From: a virus
Taxonomy: Duplodnaviria; Heunggongvirae; Uroviricota; Caudoviricetes
Virus record (IMG/VR): IMGVR_UViG_2740892231_000001
Length of the DNA: 21,088 nt
Strand: one strand, 5' to 3'
The position numbers were made by a program, and so were the translations under genes. Every line of letters starts with the position of its first letter. The stretch's first letter is position 1. The notes below the pieces were generated by a model. The model was not told the origin of the DNA and searched no databases. It saw only the letters and a list, made by a program, of their open reading frames with translations. Positions 1 through 16,246 of the stretch are shown one piece after another.

Positions 1-777
1 GCATCCGGCCCTCCCGGCTCGCCTTTTTCGCCCTTCTCTCCCCGTTCACCTTTCACACCCTGAAGCCCCTGTGGTCCTGTCTCACCACGCTCACCCTTTG
101 GCCCACGCTCGCCGGTATCGCCTTTTGGCCCGGGAATACCCTGTGGCCCGGTGTCCCCCTTATCCCCCTTCGGTCCCCGCGCATTCTCTGCCCGTTTTTT
201 TGCCTCCTCCGCACTGGCTGCGGACGCTTCCGCACGTTTCAGGATTTCCGCTGCCACCGCTTCCAGCTCTGCAAGGGCTTTCGGGTAATANNNNNNNNNN
301 CCGCTCGCCGGTATCGCCTTTTGGCCCGGGAATACCCTGTGGCCCGGTGTCTCCCTTATCCCCCTTCGGTCCCCGCGCATTCTCTGCCCGTTTCTTCGCT
401 TCCTCTGCACTCGCCGCTGACGCTTCCGCACGTTTCAGGATTTCCGCTGCCACCGCTTCCAGCTCTGCAAGGGCTTTCGGGTAATACTGTGCGTCTTCCA
501 GGTCCATCAGAAATTTATTCAGCGTTCCCGGTGCAGAATCCGCCTTCACCAGAATGTCACCCACATATGACGGCGCGTACCCTTCCGTGTTCAGCGTCAC
601 CCGGTACAACCCCGGCTCAACATCCATACTGTAACTGCCGGTTTCCCCCGGCTGACCATACGCCACCGTGGTGACAATCACCGTCTCCGTTGTGCGGCGC
701 GCTTTCAGCTCTATCGTGCATCCCGGTACCGCTTTTCCCGTACCATCCTTCAGCACACCCGATATTCTGACTGTCAT
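1..777 (-). CDS. stf: Side tail fibre protein, N-terminal part (partial; gene continues beyond the window start; reading frame broken by the 10-N gap at 291-300)
   Basis: ATG at 777-775 preceded by GGGGGA RBS. N-terminus [15 protein letters not shown]... resembles lambda Stf N-terminus [15 protein letters not shown] (recalled). Collagen-like [24 protein letters not shown] repeats; translating the minus strand of 1-290 continues Gly-X-Y repeats to base 1. Confidence 0.8.
291..300. other. 10-N assembly gap inside stf, flanked by a ~185-bp imperfect direct duplication (106-290 and 302-486)
   Basis: Run of n. The flanks are near-identical; all differences I checked are synonymous in the stf frame. 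Confidence 0.9.
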
Positions 778-790
778 GGATTTCCCCCAT

Positions 791-824
791 AAAAAAACCG
801 CAGTACCGGTTTCCCGGCCTGCGG
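791..824 (-). terminator. Rho-independent terminator immediately upstream of the stf RBS
   Basis: Minus strand reads CCGCAG-g-CCGG-gaaa-CCGG-ta-CUGCGG followed by U7 (plus-strand A-run 791-797). The stf start follows about 14 nt downstream. Confidence 0.55.
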
Positions 825-919
825 TAAAATTTGTGGTTTGTTGGTGCTAAAACGGTGCCGTCCGGCTGACCACCCTCAGCAACCGGTCGGCGGGGGATAT
901 TCTCCCCCGCCACGGTTTC

Positions 920-1060
920 TTACTGCTTACACTGTAAGAACGCCGCAATCTCCGCGCCCGCTATCCGGAACCGGAACTCGCACAGTGAAGTGTGGGTGAT
1001 CCAGATAATGAGCACTACCGTGATACAAATCACGGTGGTTTTTAACGGTTTTTGCGACAT
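920..1060 (-). CDS. Hok/Gef-family type I toxin-like small membrane protein (46 aa: MSQKPLKTTVICITVVLIIWITHTSLCEFRFRIAGAEIAAFLQCKQ)
   Basis: Hand-translated; below the 60-aa cutoff of the ORF track. ATG at 1060 with AAGGAG RBS 8 nt upstream, TAA at 922-920. Hydrophobic helix VICITVVLIIW resembles Gef IVICITAVV; SLCEFRFR and EIAAFLQCK resemble Hok/Gef/HokA motifs (DLCEVHIR, EVAAF, AAFLACK), recalled from memory. Confidence 0.6.
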   Translation of the reverse strand: MSQKPLKTTVICITVVLIIWITHTSLCEFRFRIAGAEIAAFLQCKQ

Positions 1061-1184
1061 AAACGCTTGCTCCTTTTACGGAGAGGCGCTAACCTTTCAC
1101 TTGCTTAGGATGAATGGTCAGGCCTCGGGTTAAACATGAATGTTTGTCCGGGGCCTTTTCACATCCGGCCTTCAGGTGTTCCCT

Positions 1185-1194
1185 NNNNNNNNNN
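1185..1194. other. 10-N gap in the J/hok intergenic region, flanked by a 66-bp duplication (1119-1184 and 1217-1282)
   Basis: Run of n with the same sequence on both sides. Confidence 0.9.
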
Positions 1195-1356
1195 CAATTT
1201 GCTGAAGATCGAAAGTCAGGCCTCGGGTTAAACATGAATGTTTGTCCGGGGCCTTTTCACATCCGGCCTTCAGGTGTTCCCTCCGGCCATCAGCCAAAGG
1301 CACCCGCGCATACTGTACGGTTTTTGTCTCCTTCCGGCAATCCCGGGGCGCGATGT

Positions 1357-4300
1357 TCAGCGGATACTGATCCCCGCGCTGTTTTTCTTCACCACTATCG
1401 CCTGAAGGTTACTGATACGTGAACTGCCAAAACTCCCGTTCTGACGTCGTGAACTTACGGTAAAACTCAGGGTGATATGACCATGACCGGCTGGCATATC
1501 GATGATCCCGCTGAAAATTCCCGGCTCTGTCACTGACCTGCCTGAATAAATCCGGCGTCCGTTCTGATCAACATGCAGGAAGCACTCTGTCCAGATGTCA
1601 TTACTGGTGCGGGATTCCTGTTTTGACCCGACATAGATTATCGGCGGGATTATAATCTGCCGGTCAAAGCTGTGATCGTCATACACCGTCAGCGTTCGTG
1701 TACCGTTCGCAAGGTAACTACCATCCACCGGAAAAGCCACCCCTGCACATTTCACAAGATCACCAATAATGTTCTCCGCTTTCAGCGTGCCATTTATCGT
1801 ACAGTTCTCCGCTATCACGACATTATTGAGCGTGCCCGAGTTCGCACTGATATGTCCGCTGATGTCCGCATTGCGGGCCGTCAGCCTGCCCTCCGGCGTC
1901 AGGGAGAACGTCGGGGGATTGCCGGACGAGGTGATGCTCACTGCAAACAGTCGCTTCAGGAACACGTCGTTCATGAACAGCTGATTCCCCTGCGCCACAA
2001 ACAGCGGCGTGGTGTTGCCGTTCTCCGGGTTAATCATCGCGATACGGTCCGCCTGCAGCAGTATATTGCTCAGGGGCTGGCCATCAGCATCCTCAATCCC
2101 CGCACCAATACCGGCAACATACGGAATGCCGTTTTTTGTTTTCTGCACCTTCAGCATGTACAGCGCAGCCAGGTCGTTATTTGTGTCTGTCTGCACCCGC
2201 TGTATNNNNNNNNNNAATATTGCTCAGGGGCTGGCCATCAGCATCCTCAATCCCCGCACCTATACCGGCAACATACGGAATGCCGTTTTTCGTTTTCTGC
2301 ACCTTCAGCATGTACAGCGCAGCCAGGTCGTTATTTGTGTCTGTCTGCACCCGCTGTATCTGCTGTATGGTGGCACTCTGGTCTTCCAGGGTTTTACTGA
2401 CCGTCTGTGTGATTTCATTGCGGGTTTCTGTGATGGTGGTCTTCATCTCCGCCATCTCATCATCAAGCTGGCTGTTATCAATCAGCTCCCACATCCCCTG
2501 TGCCAGATGTGTCTTCCCGATTTCTCCTCTGAAAAAGTCCAGATACCCTTCCGCATCATTGCTCGCCCGGCCACTGGCTTCCACAAACGCAGATTTCCCC
2601 ACCAGATTGACGCTGCGCACATAAAACCAGAAATCCTTCCCCGGCTTAATGTGCGGGCCGGAGACACTCCACTGGCTGCCTGTCCCCAGATAACGGGCAA
2701 AGGTTTCCACCTGTGCCATGTCCGTGATGCGTTTTTCTGAGAACCAGAATTCAGACTGTACCGTCGGGTCATACACCGCCAGCACCGGTACTGCTGTTAT
2801 CTGATAATACCCCGGCGTCAGCTCAATGCTGGCCGGTGCTGCAGGCGCATTAATCCGGAACGCGGTGGTGGCAGGTTCGCCCTGCTGGCCGTAGCTGTTT
2901 ATCGCCCTGACCGTCAGGGTGTATTCCCCCAGAGGCAGGCCACTGAAACGGTGCTCCGTGTCGGCAGTGATGGCGGTGGTCACCAGGCGGCTGTTTTCAC
3001 CACTGCCACTGGTCAGGCGCAGACTGAAGCGCACGCCCTTCACCACCCGCGGCGTGTCCCATTTCGCCAGCGCCAGATACTGGCCGTCTGAGGCACTCAC
3101 CTCCACCGTGAGGTGCTGCACTGCCGGCGGGATGACGCTGTTCAGTGAACCGGTGAGCGGCTCAAAGGTGGCCCCGTTATCCACGATGGCTTCTTTTTCC
3201 GGTACGTGCTGCACTGCCGTGATGGCAAAGGTGCCGTCCGTGTTTTCCCGGATGGAAACACAGCGGAACAGGCGACGACGCAGTGACGGCAGGGAGAGTC
3301 CCCACACACCGTATGTCTCCACGCCATCAGGCAGGACGCTGACCTGTATCCGGTCAGGGGCGGGGTGTGCAGTGATGTCCACGCGCACCGGCTTACCGCT
3401 GCCGTTAATCAGGTTCACCGTCGANNNNNNNNNNGACACAGCGGAACAGGCGACGGCGCAGTGACGGCAGGGAGAGTCCCCACACCCCGTATGTCTCCAC
3501 ACCATCAGGCAGGGTACTGACCTGTATCCGGTCCGGGGCGGGGTGTGCAGTGATGTCCACGCGCACCGGCTTACCGCTGCCGTTAATCAGGTTCACCGTC
3601 GATGTCCCTGCTTCCGGCAGTGTCACCTCACGGTCCAGCGTCAGGGTACGGCTGGCGGCATCGATGGACAGGATGCGTCCGCCGGTCAGGGTCCCTGCGT
3701 AGTCGTTATCACAGATTTCAATAATGTCACCGGGCGTGTGCCGCAGCCCCTGTGACCCGAGCGTGAAATCCACCGTCTGCGTTTCCAGCAGTTCTGTCTT
3801 TATCACCCACAGTCCGGCACGGTGGGCCTGACCGCGGCTGGTACAGCCGAACGCATCCATCTTCAGCAGATTGCGCCCGTAGCGCAGGATGGCGTCCGGG
3901 TCTTCCACCAGTTCCGTGGAAGTCTGCCAGCCGTTCTGCGGGTCGGTGTAATTCACCTCCACCGCCGTGTGCCGGTCCTTCAGGGCACTGAAGCTGTAGC
4001 GGAACCCCACGCCGTTATCATCCACCACCACATCGCTGTTGGTGTACGGCCACACCACATCCGACGGGCGGTCCTGAACGAACGTCAGCGTCTGGCCGTT
4101 CCATACCGGCATACAGCGCATCGCCGAGCAGAAATCCCCCAGGACATCCCACACCTTACGCTGCTGTGACAGGTACGCATTGAAAGTCATCCGCGGCTCT
4201 GTTCCCCCGAAACCATCCGGGACCGTCTGGTCACAGTACTGCCCGATGGCATACAGTGCCCACTTGTCCACGTCCGGGGCCCCCAGGCGTTTTCCCATGC

Positions 4301-5352
4301 CGTAGCGCGGGTGGGTCAGCATGTCCCACAGGCACCAGGCCGGGTTATTGCTGTATGCCGGTTTCAGNNNNNNNNNNAAAGGTCATCCGCGGCTCTGTGC
4401 CCCCGAAACCATCCGGGACCGTCTGGTCGCAGTACTGCCCGATGGCATACAGTGCCCACTTGTCCACATCCGCGGCCCCCAGGCGTTTTCCCATCCCGTA
4501 GCGCGGGTGGGTCAGCATGTCCCACAGGCACCAGGCCGGGTTATTGCTGTATGCCGGTTTCAGACTCCCGTCCCAGATACCGCTGTAGGTGCGTTTTTCC
4601 GGGTCATAGTTTGACGGCACCTGAATGATGCGACCACGGATATGGTAGTTCACCGTCAGCTGCTGGCCACCAAACTGCTCCGCATCCACCTGCAGCCCCA
4701 CAATGGCCGTGTTCGGGTAGCACTGTTTCACATCGATGATTTCGGTGTATGACGACCACAGCGTTCTGTTCTGCAGCTGGTCCGTGGTGCTGTCCGCCGT
4801 CACCCTGACCATCCGGATGTTAAAGGGGCGCTCAGGGAGATTATTCAGAATCACCGACGTCAGATACTGCGAGGTGGTCTTGCCGTTAATGGTGACATCC
4901 TTCTCCGTCACCCAGTGCCCGTTACGCTCAAGCTGAATCAGCAGGCGGACAGAAGAGGGATTACGGTCACCCTTTGAGGTGGTCTCCACCAGTGACTGTA
5001 CCCCGAAGGTGACCCGCAGACGGTCAATGTTCGCTGACGTGATGGTGCGCGTCACCGGCTTTGCCTTCGTCACCTCCACGCCCAGTGCGGTTTCTGCCCC
5101 GGAGGACTCAAAGCCTTCCGGCGGTGTCTGCTCCTGCTCCCCGGCACGCCAGACGGCGGTCACACCGTGTATCACGGGATTACCGTCCGTGTCCGTCAGC
5201 GGGGTTTTGTTCACCAGAATACTCTGCAGTCCCTTCACCGGACCTTCCACCGGTCCCTCACCAATGGCATCAATCACGCTCATCATCTGCGTGGATTTGA
5301 GATTGTCCTTCGCCTCACGCGGTGTGTGCCCCTTGCCGCCCCCTTTACCCAC
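1357..5352 (-). CDS. J: Tail tip / host specificity protein J (central tail fibre); reading frame apparently broken three times by 10-N gaps with duplicated flanks
   Basis: GTG start at 5352 with AGGAG RBS. N-terminus [22 protein letters not shown] and C-terminus ...[17 protein letters not shown]...[10 protein letters not shown] match lambda gpJ (recalled) across the four ORF fragments 4345-5352, 3405-4322, 2177-3505 and 1357-2196. Net length after removing duplications is about 1150 aa, against 1132 aa for lambda J. Confidence 0.95.
2206..2215. other. 10-N gap inside J, flanked by a ~144-bp imperfect duplication (2062-2205 and 2216-2359)
   Basis: Run of n with near-identical flanks (2 mismatches seen). 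Confidence 0.9.
3425..3434. other. 10-N gap inside J, flanked by a ~168-bp imperfect duplication (3257-3424 and 3435-3602)
   Basis: Run of n with near-identical flanks carrying several mismatches. Confidence 0.9.
4368..4377. other. 10-N gap inside J, flanked by a ~185-bp imperfect duplication (4183-4367 and 4378-4563)
   Basis: Run of n with near-identical flanks carrying several mismatches. Confidence 0.9.
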
Positions 5353-5392
5353 TCTGTCCCCCTCTCCTGTCTGATGTCTGAATCTGTTTATG

Positions 5393-5426
5393 CCAGAAAA
5401 CGACAGGCACCCCGGAGGGTGCCTGT
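5393..5426 (-). promoter_or_regulatory. Stable hairpin followed by U-rich tract about 40 nt upstream of the J start (terminator- or attenuator-like)
   Basis: 10-bp perfect stem ACAGGCACCC / GGGUGCCUGU (5403-5412 and 5417-5426) with a 4-nt loop. On the minus strand it is followed by CGUUUUCUGG. Confidence 0.3.
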
Positions 5427-5440
5427 GTCATGACGGAATA

Positions 5441-5556
5441 AAATTTCTGAAATTCTTCACATTTCCGGCAATTGCCTGTAGCCACTATAATGACGCAGCG
5501 TTACAGTTTTTTTGCTCAATAAAAGCAATAATTATCAGACCTCCTTAAGGTGACTA
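5441..5556 (+). repeat. Unit A of a tandem pair of paralogous ~115-bp non-coding units in the I-J intergenic insert
   Basis: Shares with unit B the blocks tctgaa(a)tttcttcacattt, gcgttacagtttttt, tcaataaaa and ctcctt in the same order and spacing. Confidence 0.6.
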
Positions 5557-5600
5557 TTCGTCTCCCGTCAGTATCCGGCGATATTACGGGAGATTTTTTT
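5498..5600 (+). ncRNA. Candidate small RNA A, antisense in orientation to the tail operon
   Basis: Perfect -10 hexamer TATAAT at 5486-5491, weak -35. Conserved body. Ends at an intrinsic terminator: bulged hairpin 5561-5593 then T7 at 5594-5600. No conserved ORF. Confidence 0.3.
5561..5600 (+). terminator. Rho-independent terminator (plus strand)
   Basis: Stem tctcccgt / acgggaga, extended by an inner 5-bp helix around loop ccggcg, followed by ttttttt. Confidence 0.6.
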
Positions 5601-5678
5601 GCTTCAGCCACACCACAACATCCTGCTCATTTACGCCACTGGTACCCTGGCGGTCATCCGTTCTGTAAACCTGCGACA

Positions 5679-5790
5679 GAAAAAGTCTGAATTTCTTCAC
5701 ATTTTCTGTACGTTCCCGTGGCAGATATCATTCCGGGGCGTTACAGTTTTTTCGGGTCAATAAAAACAAAACTCCTTGAACGTTAATCTT
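5679..5790 (+). repeat. Unit B of the tandem pair of paralogous non-coding units in the I-J intergenic insert
   Basis: Aligns with unit A block by block; diverged between the conserved blocks. Confidence 0.6.
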
Positions 5791-5840
5791 CATCGGTTCT
5801 GTCCCGCAGCTCCGCTAACTCTGCGGGATTTTTTTTTATT
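5738..5840 (+). ncRNA. Candidate small RNA B, paralogue of A
   Basis: -10-like TATCAT at 5726-5731, at the position aligned to the TATAAT of unit A. Conserved blocks. Ends at hairpin 5803-5827 then T9 at 5829-5837. Confidence 0.3.
5801..5837 (+). terminator. Rho-independent terminator (plus strand), abutting the stop codon of gene I
   Basis: Stem cccgcag / ctgcggg (5803-5809 and 5821-5827) with an 11-nt loop, followed by nine T. Confidence 0.6.
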
Positions 5841-5841
5841 T

Positions 5842-6522
5842 TTATCCCCGCCCGATAACCACCACTTTCCCGTCTCCGCCCTCATCACGGGTGCTGATAT
5901 CCTGGGATATCCGTCGTGAACCAACCAGCATTTCACCGTAAGGCACCGGCATCGGGTTACCCTGGGCAATCATGTTGTCCAGTGACGAAAAATACGTGTT
6001 CTGTTTACCGTTATCCGTACTTTTATACTCCGGCGTCTTTGCCTTCGGGGCCAGCATCTGAGCCACACCACCCAGTATCATGCTGGCACCCAGTGAGAAC
6101 AGCATCGTGGTGGCAGTCAGCCCTCCGGCACTCAGGGCTGCGCCCCATGCCGCCAGTGTTGCACCACCAGTGAAAAATGACCCGACAATCGCTGCAACCC
6201 CCAGCACCACCTGAAAAACACCATTTCCCCCGGCTCCGGCCAGTCGCGGCACAATGTGGATGACCGCTCCCTCACCCAGTTGTTCGTGAAGACGGGCGTA
6301 CACCGCCTCCGGTGCGGTATCCTCACCGGCAATACGTATCTGATACCAGCCTTCGTTCATCTGACCGCGGAATCCCGGCACCTGCAGCGACAGGGCACGG
6401 ATGGCCTCCGCTGCCGTGTTCACATACAGGCTGATGCGGCGACCAAATCGTTGTAAATCCCCGTGAAGGCAGATGCGGACCAGTGGCGGTGACGCCAGAC
6501 AGAATGCGTTCGTCGTTGCCAT
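5842..6522 (-). CDS. I: Tail assembly protein I
   Basis: 226 aa. Resembles lambda gpI (223 aa, recalled): ...RICLYGDLQRFGRRI...WYQIRIAG...YFSSLDNM.AQGN. Position between K and J. Confidence 0.9.
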   Translation of the reverse strand: MATTNAFCLASPPLVRICLHGDLQRFGRRISLYVNTAAEAIRALSLQVPGFRGQMNEGWYQIRIAGEDTAPEAVYARLHEQLGEGAVIHIVPRLAGAGGNGVFQVVLGVAAIVGSFFTGGATLAAWGAALSAGGLTATTMLFSLGASMILGGVAQMLAPKAKTPEYKSTDNGKQNTYFSSLDNMIAQGNPMPVPYGEMLVGSRRISQDISTRDEGGDGKVVVIGRG

Positions 6523-7266
6523 TTTTCAGAATACCTCTCCCGTTTACTCAGTTGTTCAGGTATATGGTGAAGCAGTTCACCGTTGCCACAGTAAATGGCG
6601 GCATGATTCGGCACCGATGAACCAAAGCAGCACAGCAGGATATCGCCCGCCTGTGCACAGGACGGAGACACCCGGTAAAAGCCGTTGTCTGCCAGGTTGT
6701 CCAGGTACAGGTTCTGACCGTTGCGCCACCAGTCATCCTCACGCACAAAATCCGGCAGCGTTATCCCCGCCAGATGGTATGCATCCCGGAACAGGGTGTA
6801 ACAGTCCGTCACACCGTGTTCAAAGCGCCGTCCGGTCAGGTGCGGCACACAGCGGAACCGGTGAATGTCACCCCGGCAGACCAGCCACCAGGGCAGGGCA
6901 CTCTTTATCTGCAGCCGCCGGTCCGCCTCGCTCAGCCAGGGCAGTCCACCGGGATGACTGTGGACCAGCGCCACAATCTCCCCCTGCATCTGTGCCTGCA
7001 GCCAGTCTTCCGGTGCAATACGAAAATACGCCTCCGGCTCTGCGGAGATATTCACGCAGGACTGGTACCGTTCGCCCTCCGGNNNNNNNNNNCTGTGCCT
7101 GCAGCCAGTCTTCCGGCGCAATACGAAAATACGCCTCCGGCTCTGCGGAGATATTCACGCAGGACTGGTACCGTTCGCCCTCCGGGGTGCTTATCACGAA
7201 GCCGCACGACTCCGCAGGCGCACACCGCCGGGCATGCGCCAGAATCACTGATTCAGTCTGTGTCAT
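6420..7266 (-). CDS. K: Tail tip assembly protein K (NlpC/P60 plus JAMM/MPN domain); interrupted by the 10-N gap at 7083-7092 with duplicated flanks
   Basis: ATG at 7266. MTQTESVILAHARRCAPAESCGFV... matches the lambda gpK N-terminus (recalled). HSHPGG metal-binding motif. C-terminal part ...LLCCFGSSVPNHAAIYCG... Overlaps the I start by about 100 bp, as in lambda. Confidence 0.9.
7083..7092. other. 10-N gap inside K, flanked by a ~94-bp duplication (6989-7082 and 7093-7186)
   Basis: Run of n with near-identical flanks (1 mismatch). Confidence 0.9.
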
Positions 7267-7276
7267 AAAACGGGAT

Positions 7277-7975
7277 TTACTGCGAAAGTTTATTAATGGA
7301 AAGGAAACCGCCGAAATTAGCCACCATGCCGCGCATCTCACACCCGCGCATGCATTTACTGCATCTGTCCTTCCGGATATCCGTGGTAGGGTTGTCGAAC
7401 TCATCCGCCACTGCCGGACCGTTATACCCGCACTCATCGCCCCGGTAATCCCACATACAGGTGTTCGCCAGCATGATGCGACCGGGAAACAGCGCCCCGT
7501 CCGTCTCCGTCGGTGTCGCCAGCACAAACGAGGCCGTCATGGCCGTCAGCGATGACATCTGCTCCACCACCCACCGGTCCGTCAGCTCCTGCTCCGGGTC
7601 GGCCTCAGGATTGCCTGCCACAAAATTCACCGCATCCAGAAAACGCGCATACACCCGGCGACGGACCACCGTGGCACCCACCAGGCTCTGCAAATCCTCC
7701 GCCATCCCGGTGACAAGGCCAAACAGATTGGACACCGTCAGCGACGGGCGGGCACTGCTGCCCTTTCCGTTCATCTCAAAGCCGCTGCCCTCAATCGGGT
7801 ACGCCTGATATTCACGCCCCTGCCAGGTCACCGGCTCCCCTTTTTCATTCAGCTCATTGCAGAAAAAATACCGCTCACCGCCCTGCACCGTCAGGTCGAT
7901 TTCCCAGAGCACCACCCGCGGTGACTGCTCTGATTTAACCGACTCGTTCAGGCTTTCTTCGTGAATATCCTGCAT
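7277..7975 (-). CDS. L: Minor tail protein L
   Basis: 232 aa, the same length as lambda gpL. MQDIHEESLNE...VVLWEIDLT...GGERYFFCNE matches the recalled lambda sequence. C-terminal Cys cluster CSKCMRGC. Confidence 0.92.
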   Translation of the reverse strand: MQDIHEESLNESVKSEQSPRVVLWEIDLTVQGGERYFFCNELNEKGEPVTWQGREYQAYPIEGSGFEMNGKGSSARPSLTVSNLFGLVTGMAEDLQSLVGATVVRRRVYARFLDAVNFVAGNPEADPEQELTDRWVVEQMSSLTAMTASFVLATPTETDGALFPGRIMLANTCMWDYRGDECGYNGPAVADEFDNPTTDIRKDRCSKCMRGCEMRGMVANFGGFLSINKLSQ

Positions 7976-8304
7976 CAGTTCACCACCTGCTTAAACTCCG
8001 CGCTGAACTCAACGCGCAACATCCCGACCCGCGCAGACCACCCGGCACAGGTCACCTTTATCTGCCGGTATGCATAGGGTGGCTTCCACAAAAATGCCTT
8101 CCAGCCCCCGTGCTCTGCCAGGAACGCTTCCAGATGCCGGGCCTCCTCCCGGGTCACGGAAAGCGTCACCCGGTATGTTTTCAGGTCAGCATTCAGCCCT
8201 GCCGCCATACGCTGTGAGTACCCGTCACCAAAACGCACTTCACGCACCGACGGCTGCGAGTTCACCTCCATATCCGGCTTCACTTTCCAGCGAAAGGTTT
8301 TCAT
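7975..8304 (-). CDS. M: Minor tail protein M
   Basis: 109 aa. MKTFRWKVKP...VRFGDGYSQR...LRVEFSAEFKQVVN is near-identical in architecture to lambda gpM (recalled). Confidence 0.92.
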   Translation of the reverse strand: MKTFRWKVKPDMEVNSQPSVREVRFGDGYSQRMAAGLNADLKTYRVTLSVTREEARHLEAFLAEHGGWKAFLWKPPYAYRQIKVTCAGWSARVGMLRVEFSAEFKQVVN

Positions 8305-10922
8305 CGCCCGCTCCCTGATAACATACCGCCATCACGCAACTGCAGCCGGAGTTCATCCTGCGCCCCCTTACGGGCCATGTCATACACCGCCTTCATCAGC
8401 TGCGGCCCCGCCTGTCCGTTGATACCGTCGTTCTGAATCACCACGTGATTGTTCTGATTAAAATTAATACCTTCCGCCCGCCGCATCTGCGCCGGACTTC
8501 CGGCACCACCCACATAACCCCCTTCCGCATAGCCGCGCATCAGGCGGTAAAGATTCCCCACACCTATCCGGCTGGTTGCCTCCTTCGTGAAGACAAACTC
8601 CCCGCGGTGAACTATCCCCGCAGGCTCATATTTGCCGCCCGTCCCCGTAAATCCTCCGGTCGCGAAATGGAAGTTCGCCGCCGCAGCCTCAATGGCCGTC
8701 CCCGTGGAGGCAGACGCCCCACCACCGAAAGCACCACCAATGGCGCTGCCGATACGCCCGACAATGCCCACCATGGCCTGTTTAAGCAGGATTTCTGTCA
8801 TCATGGACAGCACCGAACGGGTGAATCCCCGCCAGTTCTGTTCGCTGCCGGTCAGCATCGCCGCCATATTCTGTGCAATACCGTCAAAGGTCTGCGTGGC
8901 CACACTTTTAACCTGCGAAAAACTGTCCGTCGCACTTTCCGCCCACTCCCCCCAGCCGGACTTCAGCCCGGCCAGCCAGTCACCGCGCAGCATGTCTTCA
9001 TCCGCCCATGTCTGTTTCAGTGCCCCGGTGACCCGGGCCAGCGCCTGCGGATTATCGCCATACACGTCACGAAGACGCTGCGCTTCAGACTCCCGCTGCG
9101 CCTGACGGTCAGTGAGACCACGGGCTTTTGCGCTGATGGCGGCCTGCTTCGCGCTCTGCTGCTCTTCAAACCGTGCCGCCTGCTGTGCCAGCTCATTCAG
9201 GCGTTTCTGGTATTCAACCTTGTCGCCCAGCTCAGCCAGCTGGCGTTTGTACTCCAGCGTCTCTTTCTCATGGGCCAGCAGGGATTTTTCCTGCCCGGAT
9301 AACTGTCGTTTCGTGGCGGCCTCTTTCAGGACCGCATACTGACTTTCCGCTTTCCATAAATCACGGCGCTGCTGGCTGATTTTCTCATTCGCACCGCTGT
9401 GCTTCTCCAGCGTCCGGAGCTCAGTTTCAAGCGCCAGCAGGGCTGCATGCGCCCGGTCTTCCTGACGCTCCCCGGCTGACACTCTGACACCTGACGACTT
9501 CGGTTTTTTCTGCGTTGATTCATAATCCTTTTTCGCCGACGCCATCAGCGTGTTGTAATCTGCCTGCAGGATTTTCCCGTCTTTCAGGGCCTGATTCAGC
9601 TCTTTCTGCCGGGCGGTATATTTATCCAGCGGCGACAACAGGCGTTCATACGCTTTCTGCGCCTCTCCGGTATACTTCAGCTGTGACGCCTCACGCTCAG
9701 CCCTGTCCCTTGCCGCCAGTTCACCGGCTTTTTCCATATCCGACTGCAGCGTTGCCGCCGCCAGCCCCAGACGGGCATTTTCCCGGTCATCCCATGCACC
9801 CTGAAGGTTGGCCCGGAAAGAGGAGGTTTTACCGCGGCGCTGGCTCCGGCTCTGGTACCACTGCCATTTTTTATCCGCCTCATCAAATGCCTTCTGCGCA
9901 CTGGCGAGCATATCCGCTGAGGATTCAGGACGACCGATATCCAGAATGGCATCCCACATCGATTTGAACGCCTTCCCTGTTTTATCTGCCCAGGTTTCCA
10001 GCGTCCCCATGTTCTCTTTCAGGCGGCGGGTCTGGTCATCAAAGCCTTTCGTGGCAATATCGTTCGCCGCCTGTAAGGCACCGGCCTCGTCTCCGGAACG
10101 CTGCAGCTGTGCAACATACGCAATCTGCTCTGCCGTCACGTTACGGAACTGGCGCGCCATCGCCATCAGTCCCGACGTCGGGTCGGTGGTCAGCTTTCCG
10201 AAAGCCTCTGCAACCCTGTCCACTTCCACACCGGAGGCAGACGCAAAACGCGCCACACTCTGGTTAATGGCATCAAACTGCTCACCACCACGCACACCGG
10301 CACTGACCAGGGCTGCCAGTGACTCTCCCGCCTGGTTAAACGTCAGCCCTGCTGCCTGTCCGGCTCTGGAGAGCGCCAGCATGCGATCGGCAGTCAGTCC
10401 GGACTGATTACCGGAAAGAACCAGGTTTTTATTAAACGCTGAAAGCGTGGAATCCCCCTGGTACCAGGCATACGCCAGCGCACCTGTCGCGGCGACCAGT
10501 GATGTGATCCCGACGGCAGGTAGCGAGACGGCTCCCGCCAGTCCCCGGAACATCGGGATAAGACCACCGAACGAGTCTTTCACCTGACCGCCCTGTTGCA
10601 GCAGGATGAGCCAGGGATTCTGACCACCGGCAAGCTGCGTGGCAACGTCGGTGAACTGCATGGGTAGCATACGCATGGCGGCTTTATACTGCCCGACGGA
10701 CATCCCGGCTTTTTGTGCAGCCAGCGCCTGGCGGCTCAGCCCCTGCTCAACGGCAGAGGCCTGTTTCTTAAAAGACTGGCTGACACGCCCGGCCATCAAA
10801 TCCGCAAGGTCACTGGTTTCACCCAGTTCTTTCTTTACCCGTGCAGCCTCTTCAGAAAAACGGGTTGAATCCAGTGTAAGAACAGCTGTCAGATCGGCAA
10901 AATTACCCGCCATAGCGTACAC
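8301..10922 (-). CDS. H: Tail tape measure protein H
   Basis: 873 aa. Long matching stretches with lambda gpH (recalled), e.g. SRQALAAQKAGMSVGQYKAAMRMLP and C-terminal HFATGGFTGTGGKYEPAGIVHRGEFVFTKEATSRIG. The true start may be the Met 3 codons downstream (MAGNF...). Confidence 0.95.
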   Translation of the reverse strand: MYAMAGNFADLTAVLTLDSTRFSEEAARVKKELGETSDLADLMAGRVSQSFKKQASAVEQGLSRQALAAQKAGMSVGQYKAAMRMLPMQFTDVATQLAGGQNPWLILLQQGGQVKDSFGGLIPMFRGLAGAVSLPAVGITSLVAATGALAYAWYQGDSTLSAFNKNLVLSGNQSGLTADRMLALSRAGQAAGLTFNQAGESLAALVSAGVRGGEQFDAINQSVARFASASGVEVDRVAEAFGKLTTDPTSGLMAMARQFRNVTAEQIAYVAQLQRSGDEAGALQAANDIATKGFDDQTRRLKENMGTLETWADKTGKAFKSMWDAILDIGRPESSADMLASAQKAFDEADKKWQWYQSRSQRRGKTSSFRANLQGAWDDRENARLGLAAATLQSDMEKAGELAARDRAEREASQLKYTGEAQKAYERLLSPLDKYTARQKELNQALKDGKILQADYNTLMASAKKDYESTQKKPKSSGVRVSAGERQEDRAHAALLALETELRTLEKHSGANEKISQQRRDLWKAESQYAVLKEAATKRQLSGQEKSLLAHEKETLEYKRQLAELGDKVEYQKRLNELAQQAARFEEQQSAKQAAISAKARGLTDRQAQRESEAQRLRDVYGDNPQALARVTGALKQTWADEDMLRGDWLAGLKSGWGEWAESATDSFSQVKSVATQTFDGIAQNMAAMLTGSEQNWRGFTRSVLSMMTEILLKQAMVGIVGRIGSAIGGAFGGGASASTGTAIEAAAANFHFATGGFTGTGGKYEPAGIVHRGEFVFTKEATSRIGVGNLYRLMRGYAEGGYVGGAGSPAQMRRAEGINFNQNNHVVIQNDGINGQAGPQLMKAVYDMARKGAQDELRLQLRDGGMLSGSGR

Positions 10923-11358
10923 CTCCTGGAATTCCCTCAGACACCATCATCAGCATGGCTTCATCCTCTGTACTGCTCCGCATGTCATCACTGACCGTAA
11001 CGATTTCCTTCCCGTCAGCCCCAAAGCGGACACCACCAGAAAGTCCTGCCGCTTTCCGCATCAGCATATCGTCCTCATCCGGCATCTCCGTCTGCTCATC
11101 ATCACGTCGGGGTGCCAGCAGACTGAAATCAGAGGGATGCATATCCGGATCGCAAAAAAACAGGCTGAGTACAGCGTACGTCAGCCCGGAAAAATGCATA
11201 TCCAGCTGGGTATCATGAAAATAATGCGTGCGGTAAAAACGTCGCCAGTCGGCATATTCGGTGGATGTCATCCCGGCAAGCATGGCGCGCCAGTCGGGTC
11301 TCCCCATCTCACGCGCCAGTCTGAGGGCAAAGTTCAGCTCGCCGTCGAAGACTTTCCC
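10903..11358 (-). CDS. T: T portion of the tail assembly chaperone G-T fusion, reached from G by programmed -1 ribosomal frameshift
   Basis: The -1 frame relative to G stays open from the slippery site down to a stop at 10903. I verified by hand that the frame of ORF 10903-11307 is -1 relative to G. Confidence 0.8.
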   Translation of the reverse strand, partial: GKVFDGELNFALRLAREMGRPDWRAMLAGMTSTEYADWRRFYRTHYFHDTQLDMHFSGLTYAVLSLFFCDPDMHPSDFSLLAPRRDDEQTEMPDEDDMLMRKAAGLSGGVRFGADGKEIVTVSDDMRSSTEDEAMLMMVSEGIPGGVRYGG

Positions 11359-11765
11359 GCAGAAAAATCATCATCAGTCAGCGCGTTATTTTTCGCCACT
11401 TCAGTAATATCAGTATCCGGACGAACAGCTTCGATCATACCGGACAGGCACAACACCACGTCTTCCGCCCGGGCAATGGCATCGGCAGGCCAGGTGGTGA
11501 GCACTTCCTGCTCTATCTTCATCACGGCCTCATTCATTGACGGTGACTGCGTTTTCTGTGGATGGTTATGCCACAGGGACATCGCCACCAGAAACGCGCC
11601 GGTTCTGACAAGATCTTCCACACTCACCTGCAGGTTGCCGCTGGCTTCAGCCTCTTCTGCCCGCCGTTTCAGGAGGGCAAGATGCTCAATACGCTGCAGC
11701 GCAGACAGCTCAGAAAGCGTGACAGACACCCCGTTATATTCAAATTGTTCTGTTTTCAGAAACAT
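11334..11765 (-). CDS. G: Tail assembly chaperone G
   Basis: 143 aa. MFLKTEQFEYNGVSVTLSELSALQRIEHLALLKR matches the lambda gpG N-terminus (recalled). Confidence 0.92.
   Translation of the reverse strand: MFLKTEQFEYNGVSVTLSELSALQRIEHLALLKRRAEEAEASGNLQVSVEDLVRTGAFLVAMSLWHNHPQKTQSPSMNEAVMKIEQEVLTTWPADAIARAEDVVLCLSGMIEAVRPDTDITEVAKNNALTDDDFSAGKSSTAS
11352..11358 (-). promoter_or_regulatory. Slippery heptamer G GGA AAG for the G/G-T -1 frameshift
   Basis: Plus strand ctttccc; on the minus strand GGGAAAG sits in the G frame as G_GGA_AAG, 6 codons before the G stop, the same arrangement as in lambda. Confidence 0.85.
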
Positions 11766-11784
11766 GCTTTATCACTCCCTCAGC

Positions 11785-12534
11785 TTAACCCGCTGCACCA
11801 TCCGTGACGGTAATTTCCGCCACTGCCGCAAACTCACCATTGCCGGTAACCACAGGGATCTGCGCTTTACCTGCCGCAACACCTTTCACGGTGATCGTGT
11901 TCCCTTTCACGGTAATGGTGGCGAAATTCTGATTCGCCGACGTGGCACGGAAGGTTTTATCCGTCGCCCCTTCCGGCTGAACAGCCACGGTCAGGGTGAT
12001 ATTCTGACCTTTTGCCACATTGCCCGTTGGTGGCGTCACGGTAATACCGGTGACCGGTGTGATGTCCCCCTGATCTTCCGCCAGCGACGGACGACCGATA
12101 TTGGTGATTTTTACCGTACGGGTGATCACCTCTTTGGCGGTCACCGCTTTACCAATGGCGCTCACCCAGCCACGGAACACATCCACCGTACCGTTCGGGA
12201 AGCGAATTTTGTAGGCCCGGCTCTCACTGCTGTCAAACCAGGCAATCAAATCGCGCTGCCCTTTCTCACCCGGCTTCCAGGCCAGCGTAAAACTGGTGTC
12301 ACCGGCAGATTTCTGCCCCTGCCCGGTGGATACCCAGTCAGCATCCTCATCATCCAGATAGTTATCATCGTAGGATTCTGCCGTCATCTCGCCGGGGGTC
12401 AGATCCTTCACCTTCGCCAGTCGCTGCCAGTCATCGTCTGACAACGGGTTTGCATAAGCATCACCAGTGCCGGTGTACACCCACAGTGTGGTACCGGAAC
12501 CTTTCACCGGCTCAAGAGGATTTGGTGTTGCCAT
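11785..12534 (-). CDS. V: Major tail protein V (with C-terminal Ig-like domain)
   Basis: 249 aa. ...[48 protein letters not shown]... and C-terminal [19 protein letters not shown] match lambda gpV (recalled). Confidence 0.95.
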
Positions 12535-12541
12535 ATCGTCC

Positions 12542-12940
12542 TCACATCTCGTAGGTAATTTTCCACAGGAGATCTGCCGATCCCCACATCATAAACTCAT
12601 CATCCCGGCGGTAGTCATACCCCTGAAGATTCATTTTCAGCAGTAATGCACTGAGCCCGGGAACTGCCTCCAGCGCAGGAAGAATTTTTTCTTCCATCCA
12701 CATATCCAGTGCCGAGTCCGGTTCTTTTGCCCTGAGAAAAACCTCAATATGCAGTGTCGCCTCCCAGGTTCCCTCATCAACGAACTCGTCAGCAGCAGAC
12801 GCATCTGTCAGGTAAACAGCAACAGCAGGCAGTTCCTGTTCATCAATAAAAACCGGGCGACCGTCAAACCAGCTCACCCTCTCAGAAATATTTTCTTTCA
12901 GGGCAGACAGAACTGCCGCCCGTATTTCACGGTGTCTCAT
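12542..12940 (-). CDS. U: Tail terminator protein U
   Basis: 132 aa. ...LHIEVFL.A...SGYDYRRDD...ITYEM matches lambda gpU (recalled). Confidence 0.93.
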
Positions 12941-12952
12941 ACACCCTCCCAG

Positions 12953-13582
12953 TCATTTTCTTTTCAGCACCAGGCGTAACTGATGCGTCATGGCTTTCAT
13001 CATCTGCGCCGGTAATTTTTCCCGGTACATCCGGTCCCGTTCACGTTCAAAGGTTTCTGCCAGCGGTCCGGCAGTCGGAATCTTCACCACTTCGATCGGC
13101 AGACGGTGGCGTTTCGGCCTCCCTTTGCTGTCAGCGCCGGTGGACGATGATGCCCACGGCATACGCTGCATCACATGCCAGCGTCCGTTAGCCAGCCGGG
13201 TGATAAAGGCATCCGGGATCCGTCTTTTCCCCACAATCAGCACGCTGCCACCGCCTTTCGTGACCGAACGCTCGCCTTTCTTTCGTCGCTTTCTGCGGGA
13301 AAGCAGCACGCTGGCCGTCCCCAGTTTTATGGCGGGCAGATTACCGGTGTTGATGATGACCTTCGCATAAACCCTGTCTGCGCTGGCCCGTTGCAGGCGG
13401 ATACGCTCACGGATGAGACGGCGCGGAACCGCCAGCTCCCTGGCAACCGAAGAGGCCGTTTTCGCGATGATGGACTCCGCCACACGGTTAAGTGTCGTGG
13501 CGGCAGCCCGGGGAACGGCACGGCGGTCAATTGCATCCAGATTTTTCATGGCCTGCGCCAGACCTTTTATTGCCATACTCAT
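12953..13582 (-). CDS. Z: Tail completion protein Z
   Basis: 209 aa. MAIKGL.QA..NL...AVP.AAA...NRVA.S.I...VLLSRRKRRKKG.RS..KGGGSVL.VG.RRIP.AFI..L.NGRWHVMQR matches lambda gpZ (recalled). Confidence 0.92.
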   Translation of the reverse strand: MSMAIKGLAQAMKNLDAIDRRAVPRAAATTLNRVAESIIAKTASSVARELAVPRRLIRERIRLQRASADRVYAKVIINTGNLPAIKLGTASVLLSRRKRRKKGERSVTKGGGSVLIVGKRRIPDAFITRLANGRWHVMQRMPWASSSTGADSKGRPKRHRLPIEVVKIPTAGPLAETFERERDRMYREKLPAQMMKAMTHQLRLVLKRK

Positions 13583-14266: not shown

Positions 14267-16246
14267 TCAGGCCACCGACGAACGCACCAGCCCGCGCCAG
14301 TCAAGTGGTGCCACTCCGGCATCAATACGGATTTTTGTGGCAATACCGTCAGTGGTGAAACCTTCCTGCTGATCAATGTATGGCGTGTCCACACCATCCA
14401 GCCAGGCCACTTCAATGGTGTCAGTGCCCTGTGCCGCCGCCAGATACCAGGTTTTCGGATCTGCCGCATCAAGACGCGCTTCTGCAATCACCTCAGCAAA
14501 GTTCTGGATGGGGTTAATGACACCGGCGTTTGCATCCGCCCCTTTCACGCTGGCCGATTTGATGGTCTGGTTCGCCACCGTCTCCAGTGCCACCGGTACC
14601 AGCATAAAGGCCGGACGGATATTCAGGGCGCGATCGCCTTCTTTCTGCAGGCGCATCATCTGACGGGCCGCATCCAGTCCGGAAACAGAGATCCCCCCGG
14701 TGGCAATATTTTTGTGATCGGCATGGAACAGCGACTTACCGTCGGACAGTTTCGGGTTATCCGTCAGCACCTTGTAAACCAGGTCACCAATCGTTGCCTT
14801 CGCCGCACGCCCCATCTTCATCGGCACGTCCACCAGCATATTCAGATCATCATTGATAATGGCCTGGCGGGTGATGGAGAAAATCTCCCCGTAGGTGGCC
14901 AGAGCAATGGTCTCCTTGCGATCTGAGGTGGTAATGTATTTATACTCCGCCCCCTCACGAACCTGACGCAGAGAACCAAAACCGCCCATCCCCACGCGAT
15001 ACGCTGTTTTGAAGTCTGACAGGCGTCCCTTACGGGTCCACTTCTGGAAGGTTTCTTCTGATTCCTCCCAGCCCTGGATCAGCCCCTTGTTCGACACATC
15101 CAGCAGGATATTGCCAAAATCAGAGGTGCTGTGCGTAAGCGCCAGCCCGACCATCTGCATGGGGTTATAACTGGCCACCCCAATACCGCGCTCCGTCAGT
15201 GACATACGAGCCCATTCACGCAGGGTCATCCCGTTATAGGCGTTATCCTTCTCGACATTTTCAAATCCGGCACGGGCCAGCATCGCCTGGCGGATCCCGT
15301 CTCCCACAAAATTGCCGTTTCCGGCATAAATATGGGCCGGTGTGTTTTTGTTGGTCGGCGAGGACTCCTTGCCCATTTCATTCAGCAGACGTTCACGGGC
15401 CATTTCCAGCGAACAGTCAGGATCAGCCACGCACTGTGCCTGAAGCGTCTGATAGCGACCGCCGAACATGGCAAACAGATCGTTAATGCCTGACATGCGG
15501 GCTTTCTGCTCAGCCATAACGCGGGCGCGAATGGTCGCCTCATCAGACACTGCCGGTACCGGTGATGGTTCTGTTACCGCCGGTGCAGGGATTGTCACTG
15601 TGGTATCACGCGGGGCACTGTTGCGTGGTGGAGTAATCATGTTTCGGATGGATTCCGGCATCTTTTTAAATTCCTCTGTACGTTTTGACTGAATACATGC
15701 CATTGCCTCAACAGCGGGTGTCACCTGGTCAGCAAATCCGTGTGCCAGACATTCGGCACCGGACATCCAGGTTTCATCCGCCAGCATGGCGGCAATTTCA
15801 TCGGTGGTTTTTCCGGTTTTCTGCGCATAGGCTGGCAACAGTACCGATTCGACTTTATCCAGCAAATCAGCATAACTGCGCATATCCTCAGCATCCCCGC
15901 CACTGAATCCCCATGGCTTATGGATCATCATGAAGGCATTTTCCGGCATAATGACCGTATCACCGGCCATCGCAATCACAGATGCCATCGAGGCGGCAAC
16001 GCCATCCACATACACGGTAATGGTCGCCCCCTGATTTTTCAGGGAATTAAAAATGGCGATGCCTTCAAAGACATCGCCACCCGGTGAGTTGATGTGGAGA
16101 TTAATGTGGGTGATATCACCCAGAGCATTCAGTTCGCTGACAAACTGCTTCGCGGTAACTCCCCAGAAACCAATCTCGTCATAAATATAAATATCCGCGT
16201 CACCCGGCCCCCCAGCCTGCATCCTGAACCAGGATTTATTCTTCAT
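14267..16246 (-). CDS. Fused prohead protease (ClpP/S14-like) and HK97-type major capsid protein
   Basis: ORF 14267-16438. Probable true start is MKNKSWF at 16246, which overlaps the portal stop. N-terminal region has ClpP-like motifs (INSPGGDVFEG..., MASVIAMAGD, MIHKPWG); the C-terminal ~300 aa is capsid-like. Confidence 0.7.
   Translation of the reverse strand: MKNKSWFRMQAGGPGDADIYIYDEIGFWGVTAKQFVSELNALGDITHINLHINSPGGDVFEGIAIFNSLKNQGATITVYVDGVAASMASVIAMAGDTVIMPENAFMMIHKPWGFSGGDAEDMRSYADLLDKVESVLLPAYAQKTGKTTDEIAAMLADETWMSGAECLAHGFADQVTPAVEAMACIQSKRTEEFKKMPESIRNMITPPRNSAPRDTTVTIPAPAVTEPSPVPAVSDEATIRARVMAEQKARMSGINDLFAMFGGRYQTLQAQCVADPDCSLEMARERLLNEMGKESSPTNKNTPAHIYAGNGNFVGDGIRQAMLARAGFENVEKDNAYNGMTLREWARMSLTERGIGVASYNPMQMVGLALTHSTSDFGNILLDVSNKGLIQGWEESEETFQKWTRKGRLSDFKTAYRVGMGGFGSLRQVREGAEYKYITTSDRKETIALATYGEIFSITRQAIINDDLNMLVDVPMKMGRAAKATIGDLVYKVLTDNPKLSDGKSLFHADHKNIATGGISVSGLDAARQMMRLQKEGDRALNIRPAFMLVPVALETVANQTIKSASVKGADANAGVINPIQNFAEVIAEARLDAADPKTWYLAAAQGTDTIEVAWLDGVDTPYIDQQEGFTTDGIATKIRIDAGVAPLDWRGLVRSSVA

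Follow-up and report, generated by a model that had tools for sequence, protein, structure and literature searches.

Introduction

The closest described counterparts of the DNA studied here are the lambda-type tail-tip modules with hok/sok carried by STEC prophages. The window, by which we mean the whole stretch of 21,088 nucleotides that was analyzed, has the same gene order and Pfam content as these modules. On the side of sequence assembly, the closest described case is the Velvet scaffold. The Pebble paper reports that Velvet joins neighboring nodes with a buffer of N's if no path between them is found and that many of these buffers are very short (PMC2793427).

The window is also the entire public record CCPU01000131.1 (GCA_000752815.1). 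A preliminary description had claimed six 10-N gaps in it, each flanked by near-identical direct duplications, and had read them as unmerged contig overlaps. Here, we define the geometry of these sites, identify the two versions of the sequence that meet there, and propose how they came to stand side by side.

Results

We scanned the whole 21-kb window and found exactly six runs of N, all six with the same minimal length of 10 nt, and no N elsewhere. By local alignment at the six sites, the left copy of each duplication terminated on the base directly before the gap, and the right copy began 0 to 20 nt past it. When read in register from the first post-gap base, the copies overlapped by 186, 88, 144, 168, 186, and 93 nt at gaps 1 to 6, with 9, 9, 3, 8, 7, and 1 differences between them (37 in total). 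All six pairs are therefore in-register direct duplications of 88 to 186 nt. An independent repeat finder recovered the same six pairs and, across the 21 kb, just one further direct repeat of 40 nt or longer, an intergenic pair with 74% identity. The gaps with their near-identical flanks were thus borne out. The flank sizes given earlier (66 to 185 bp) need correction; the flanks are indeed duplicated, but the shortest identical stretch is 68 rather than 66 nt, and the in-register overlaps are 88 to 186 nt.

The identical stretch that ends at the gap was exactly 68 nt in each of the six pairs. At gaps 1 to 5, the first base after the gap was also the first difference between the copies (5 of 6 sites), and this base is a natural polymorphism among relatives. 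In the hok pair (gap 2), 20 diverged nt come first and the 68 identical nt follow. The K pair (gap 6), with its single differing base, has a right copy that starts 24 nt ahead of that difference. As previously described, the gaps lie in the stf N terminus, the hok/sok leader, J (three times), and K. They are confined to this tail-tip module, and the remaining 14 kb is without any.

Table 1. Positions of gaps, flanking copies, and genes in the window. Arms are the copies to the left and right of each gap, numbered after the bubbles of the k = 69 model; L numbers denote related loci.
Feature	Position	Strand	Description
N-run 1	291..300		10 N, inside stf
Left arm, bubble 1	105..290		186 nt, first difference to 68 nt past last; exact in L007, L090-L094
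Right arm, bubble 1	301..486		186 nt, 9 differences, all synonymous; haplotype of L001 at 8/9 sites
N-run 2	1185..1194		10 N, hok mRNA leader/sok region
Left arm, bubble 2	1097..1184		88 nt (20 diverged + 68 identical); exact in 7 loci
Right arm, bubble 2	1195..1282		88 nt; exact in L003; 20-nt variant in 5 relatives
N-run 3	2206..2215		10 N, in J
Left arm, bubble 3	2062..2205		144 nt
Right arm, bubble 3	2216..2359		144 nt, 3 differences
N-run 4	3425..3434		10 N, in J
Left arm, bubble 4	3257..3424		168 nt
Right arm, bubble 4	3435..3602		168 nt, 8 differences, one amino acid change; exact in L001
N-run 5	4368..4377		10 N, in J
Left arm, bubble 5	4182..4367		186 nt
Right arm, bubble 5	4378..4563		186 nt, 7 differences, one amino acid change
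N-run 6	7083..7092		10 N, in K
Left copy, gap 6	6990..7082		93 nt, lone difference at 7014; exact in L091
Right copy, gap 6	7093..7185		93 nt; starts 24 nt before the two-haplotype bubble prediction; exact in L090, L092-L094
stf (side tail fiber), N-terminal part	1..777	-	PF08400 + collagen repeats; cut by record end, split by gap 1
hok (46 aa, Hok/Gef toxin)	920..1060	-	PF01848, 42.2 bits; annotated in L001
hok leader/sok RNA region	1058..1305	-	Rfam RF01794 match with 101-nt insertion
J (tail tip attachment protein)	1357..5352	-	Four ORF pieces; one 1155-aa ORF once collapsed
I (tail assembly protein)	5842..6522	-	Intact, PF06805
K (JAB + NlpC/P60 peptidase)	6420..7266	-	Split by gap 6; 247 aa once collapsed

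The genes of the module are those of lambda in lambda order, which agrees with annotated prophages, and the closest relatives reside as prophages in STEC and other E. coli. K, I, J, and the stf N-terminal domain all gave Pfam matches above the cutoff; for J, these were FNIII-A_GpJ, Phage-tail_3, Ig_J, Ig_J_second, Phage_Tail_Tip, and Ig_GpJ_C. Both parts of a hok/sok type I toxin-antitoxin system were found, i.e., the Hok/Gef peptide and the sok/hok-leader RNA. At the gathering threshold, Rfam returned no match within positions 1 to 7300. The hok-leader family RF01794 has a gathering score of 59 but scored only 42.2 bits in the window, owing to the 101 nt that the duplication and gap 2 add; the uninterrupted relative L001 scored 62.3 bits. 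The I-J intergenic repeat matched no Rfam family.

We collapsed the sequence by removing one copy and the gap at each of the six sites, 925 nt altogether. In the collapsed sequence, J was uninterrupted over 1155 aa, K had 247 aa, and the stf N terminus was continuous. The collapsed sequence aligned to the natural contig L090 without a gap over 19,988 nt at 99.63% identity, so that colinearity with natural prophages was regained with no indel at any junction. With the STEC1585 prophage as the reference, successive segments of the window mapped colinearly, each overlapping the next. The interruptions of J, K, and stf are assembly artifacts and not real truncations. The preliminary description had said as much, and the check that it proposed, taking out one copy per site, gave the continuous frames and the colinearity reported here.

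The two copies at each site differ in a manner expected of natural sequences. Of 28 coding differences, 25 fell at codon position 3, and only two amino acids change. The stf pair, in which those differences that had been checked were called synonymous, indeed differed at codon position 3 in 9 of 9 cases with no amino acid change. A diversity-generating or phase-variation mechanism was ruled out, since nearly every difference is synonymous. Gaps 1 to 5 comprise 36 differing sites; of these, L007 has the left allele at 34 and L009 at 32, and L001 has the right allele at 34. The complete genome CP027328.1 (L091) contains all six left arms exactly. As judged from these sequence comparisons, the 37 differences are real evolved alleles, and the left arms and right arms represent two separate natural haplotypes. 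The earlier suggestion that two diverged versions of one sequence had been joined is supported by these coherent haplotypes and mostly synonymous differences. Searches of viral contigs gave no match for the gap 1 junction or for the exact gap 1 right arm, and metagenome contigs gave none for the latter; genome contigs searched with J returned distant or contaminant contigs only.

We built a generative model in which two haplotypes enter a de Bruijn graph with k = 69 and each bubble is written in series as arm, 10 N's, and arm. Differences within an arm were at most 51 nt apart, so each patch makes one bubble. As far as position 7093, the output of the model was identical to the window at every base. 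With k set to 55, 61, 63, 65, 67, 68, 70, 71, or 77, it failed in each case already at the first gap.

Discussion

We believe, with a probability of about 0.9, that the six sites are bubbles left unresolved in a k = 69 de Bruijn graph of two tail-tip versions, both arms of which were written serially around a gap. The sequenced DNA would have held two near-identical lambdoid prophage tail-tip modules (K, I, J, hok/sok, and stf) that differed in a few short patches. At six patches, an assembler working with k = 69 would have failed to merge the two paths, and the scaffolder would have put both between the same shared flanks as first arm, 10-N minimum buffer, and second arm. We propose that an estimated distance of zero or less gave the buffer its minimum length. 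Each arm would extend from the first differing base through 68 nt (k-1) past the last one, as predicted for a k-mer path whose node is stored minus its first k-1 bases. The previous reading as unmerged contig overlaps was right about the artifact; in place of arbitrary untrimmed overlaps, however, the model has k = 69 bubble arms in series.

We infer that the assembler was Velvet or Velvet-like. Storage of nodes without their first k-1 bases is what we take to be Velvet's convention, and its gap floor is presumably 10 N's; a literature search found no text confirming either the floor or the node storage. With Velvet's default bubble limit, which we take to be 100 bp, simple bubbles of 88 and 93 nt should have merged. 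Gap 6 misfits the simple two-arm model; to explain it, either a third allele must have been present or one short shared node must have been written two times. Position 6990 varies among relatives, and two co-resident copies of the module in E. coli strain 48 have different bases there, which is only suggestive as an account of the gap 6 offset.

An artifact of another kind would be independent contigs that were lined up along a reference and joined through 10-N spacers, their overlaps left untrimmed. Such spacers are also used in hand-made or reference-guided joins, and all segments do map colinear and overlapping on the reference. However, six arbitrary ends would not all be preceded by exactly 68 identical nt, and in contigs from a graph the shared k-1 bases would be found at either end of the overlap, whereas the right copy starts on the first difference at five of six sites. 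We therefore regard contig pasting as very improbable. Genuine tandem duplications in the prophage, with N-runs standing for short unsequenced stretches between the copies, have only the appearance of the sequence to speak for them, and we give them practically no chance. Each breaks a reading frame that its removal restores exactly, none is present in any of 96 related loci, and the E. coli genomes L001, L088, and L089 have the matching regions once. Tandem duplication offers no biological reason for the 68-nt regularity, and the junctions are N-runs rather than contiguous sequence. Moreover, the copies differ by old synonymous polymorphisms common to other prophages, unlike recent duplicates.

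If the sites are k = 69 bubbles, the second version probably stems from a paralogous prophage that the same genome carries, as the number of module copies per genome suggests. The tail-tip module occurs at a median of 3 and a maximum of 13 places per E. coli genome, and the stf type of the window occurs at a median of 2. The two copies in strain 48 are 97.4 to 97.9% identical and would produce k = 69 bubbles of 69 to 321 nt. The same graph artifact could arise from two strains or variants, or from a contaminant in the culture, with allelic forms of one prophage. From the letters alone, this looks the same as paralogues; both yield two coherent haplotypes and identical bubble geometry. We nevertheless consider a mixture unlikely. 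The record is a 21-kb scaffold of an isolate-type WGS assembly, it ends inside stf, as it should if several prophage copies have sequence in common, and multiple co-resident module copies are the rule in E. coli. A mixture should also scatter variants more widely, whereas the gaps keep to the tail-tip module and leave the rest of the window free.

The stretches that the two versions share are themselves mosaic. The window agrees with L001 at approximately 75 sites where L091 differs, and the switches fall between sites 2 to 30 nt apart. A bubble-popping consensus of two copies, one like L091 and one like L001, may have contributed to these stretches but would not account for all of them. Switches over 2 to 30 nt cannot result from popping at k = 69, which would also need to have merged predicted bubbles of 165 to 345 nt yet spared shorter ones. 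The mosaic is natural at least in part. A tentative and rather doubtful extension of the paralogue reading is that gene conversion has kept two co-resident prophages almost identical over ~6.5 kb, the six patches being unconverted remnants. If so, the isolate would be a snapshot of concerted evolution in tail-tip genes, and its trace would be the patchy a-type/b-type mosaic seen in comparison with L091 and L001.

The importance of these findings for CCPU01000131.1 is purely practical. False duplications and gaps make up 925 nt of the record, and among its gene calls are four fragments of J (one of 282 aa), a shortened K, and a split stf. Artifactual fragments of this kind pass into protein databases as though they were genuine truncated proteins. 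A literature search found no paper mentioning CCPU01. For other drafts, a repair rule would be to look for 10-N runs in which the left flank is found again right behind the gap and is identical over a fixed k-1 bases. Such sites also mark genomes in which a prophage module is present in two or more copies.

Compared with Velvet/Pebble scaffolds, the value of k-1 = 68 with an odd k of 69 and the one-sided k-1 offset fit the way in which Velvet represents nodes, while gap 6 and two arms of <100 nt would not be expected from default Velvet. False duplications in assemblies of heterozygous diploids likewise place alleles in tandem beside a gap, break genes, inflate the length, and are cured by removal of one copy. 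Here, in contrast, the "alleles" are most likely paralogous prophages, the genome is haploid and bacterial, and the duplications span 88 to 186 nt per site. Once the artifact is removed, the window is ~99.6% identical to known prophages, and nothing notable differs from the STEC-type tail-tip modules.

Gaps and duplicated flanks

The N content of the window is confined to six runs, each of exactly 10 nt. Every run is bordered by a direct duplication in register, and at all six sites the left copy ends on the base immediately before the gap. An independent repeat finder applied to the 21 kb (direct repeats of at least 40 nt) recovered the same six pairs plus one intergenic pair of 74% identity, and no more. 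Chance is not an issue for the six duplications. The preliminary description had reported six such gaps with duplicated flanks in stf, J, K, and the hok leader, and both this observation and the gene context are confirmed.

Features of the window; overlap lengths are measured from the first post-gap base, and differences are those between the two copies
Feature	Window position	Strand	Overlap (nt)	Differences	Location or content
Gap 1 (10 N)	291-300		186	9	stf
Gap 2 (10 N)	1185-1194		88	9	hok leader
Gap 3 (10 N)	2206-2215		144	3	J
Gap 4 (10 N)	3425-3434		168	8	J
Gap 5 (10 N)	4368-4377		186	7	J
Gap 6 (10 N)	7083-7092		93	1	K
stf N terminus		minus			PF08400 and collagen repeats; cut by record end
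hok		minus			PF01848; with leader/sok RNA
J, I, K (JAB + NlpC/P60), L, M, tape measure protein		minus			rest of tail module
I-J intergenic region	5353-5841				about 490 nt
Tandem units in I-J region	5440-5512, 5680-5752				74% identical, ~240 nt apart

Removal of one copy per site

Deleting one copy together with its gap at all six sites removed 925 nt. In this collapsed sequence, the four pieces of J became a single ORF of 1155 aa with the domains expected of J (FNIII-A_GpJ, Phage-tail_3, Ig_J, Ig_J_second, Phage_Tail_Tip, and Ig_GpJ_C), K became a 247-aa protein, and the stf N terminus was continuous. The truncations of J, K, and stf are artefacts, as had been proposed together with this very check. 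In the coordinates of the annotated STEC1585 prophage (L001), neighboring window segments overlap by the duplication length, and the collapsed sequence is colinear with that prophage at every junction. It also aligns with a natural contig (L090) over 19,988 nt without gaps at 99.63% identity. None of the duplications was present among 96 related loci or in the genome regions compared. We conclude that they are not real but an assembly artefact.

The Rfam sok model crosses gap 2 with a 101-nt insertion; its score there, 42 bits, falls short of the threshold of 59, whereas an uninterrupted relative reaches 62 bits. The window is the whole of record CCPU01000131.1 (21,088 bp; assembly GCA_000752815.1), and locus L097 is the reverse complement of window 1-12205. 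The gene calls of CCPU01000131.1 break J into pieces of 335, 311, 413, and 282 aa and stf into pieces of 205 and 97 aa, and they list K at 233 aa; artefactual fragments of all three genes are thus carried in public annotation.

The two copies as alleles

The copies differ at 37 positions, 28 of them coding. Third codon positions hold 25 of these 28, only two amino acids change, and all nine differences in stf are synonymous, as the preliminary description had stated. The two copies are real alleles, and the arms make up two coherent haplotypes, in keeping with the proposal that two diverged versions had been joined. Over gaps 1 to 5, the left allele occurs at 34 of the 36 differing sites in an IMG/VR contig (L007) and at 32 of 36 in locus L009, and the right allele at 34 of 36 in the STEC1585 prophage. 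Complete genome CP027328.1 (L091) has all six left arms exactly and, outside the tail-tip region, 7 mismatches to the window in 13,239 bases. Exact right arms exist in nature for gap 2 (L003), gap 4 (STEC1585 prophage), and gap 6 (L090 and L092 to L094).

Between the gaps, blocks with CP027328.1 alleles alternate with blocks with STEC1585 alleles. This mosaic could reflect either natural mosaicism or consensus chimerism, and allele switches only 2 to 30 nt apart show it to be natural at least in part. CP027328.1, the closest complete relative, has the six left arms, yet in the shared stretches between arms 3 and 5 (roughly window 2062-4930, or 1768-4110 of the collapsed sequence), the window is of the STEC1585 (right-arm) type at ~60 sites.

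Origin of the duplications

In every one of the six pairs, the identical stretch that ends at the gap measures exactly 68 nt. At gaps 1 to 5, the first post-gap base differs between copies, and the same base is polymorphic in relatives. Each copy therefore extends from the first difference to 68 nt past the last; that is, it comprises all 69-mers holding a difference, each written as its last base. We built a generative model in which the differences between two collapsed haplotypes were clustered into bubbles at a given k and written as left arm, 10 N, and right arm. At a k of 69, the model matched the window base for base up to position 7093, a span with five full sites and the sixth N-run. 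Models with a k of 55, 61, 63, 65, 67, 68, 70, 71, or 77 all failed at the first gap.

Such duplications might come from pasting complete contigs together. However, the offset is one-sided, with k-1 common bases closing the overlap and zero opening it, which argues against contig pasting and favors internal scaffolding by an assembler in which the first k-1 bases of a node are not stored with it. Velvet represents nodes in this way and writes a minimum of 10 N per buffer. Where Velvet finds no path, neighboring nodes are joined by an N buffer, and many buffers are very short (PMC2793427, the Pebble paper). The sole misfit to the model is gap 6, where the right copy begins 24 nt ahead of its single difference. 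Position 6990, the start of the gap 6 copy, varies among relatives, and the two copies in Escherichia coli strain 48 have different bases there; the misfit could therefore be due to a third allele present in the sample.

A mixed culture is a possible source of the second version; paralogous prophages are the likely one. E. coli genomes hold the tail module at a median of 3 places (maximum, 13); for the stf type of the window, the median is 2 per genome. The copies in strain 48 are coresident, are 97.4 to 97.9% identical from stf through the tape measure gene, and would yield k=69 bubbles of 69 to 321 nt. A short scaffold ending inside stf, such as this record, is as expected where copies have sequence in common. 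The preliminary description was correct in its observations and, for the most part, in its explanation. The record terminates within the stf collagen-like repeats (window 1-120), likely at a graph branch point between prophage copies differing in fiber C termini.

The tail module and its relatives

The two diverged tandem units between I and J contain terminator-like hairpins and T runs, and an Rfam search of this region returned no family. Its length varies, with J starting at 15352 in CP027328.1, 15459 in L090, and 15685 in L092. In CP027328.1, minor tail gene L (12939-13373) is called as 144 aa, not 232, and K starts ~107 nt earlier than in other loci, which suggests a deletion in L. Two ~3.4-kb contigs in species-representative assemblies, from Streptomyces flavalbus (NZ_JBHTEB010000006.1) and a Clostridiales MAG (SFGJ01000116.1), each carry a gene for a J protein that has 95% identity with the E. 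coli-type prophage J of the window and are most likely contamination. All genes of the window lie on one strand and together make up a lambda-type tail module; once repaired, the region is that of an ordinary lambdoid prophage.
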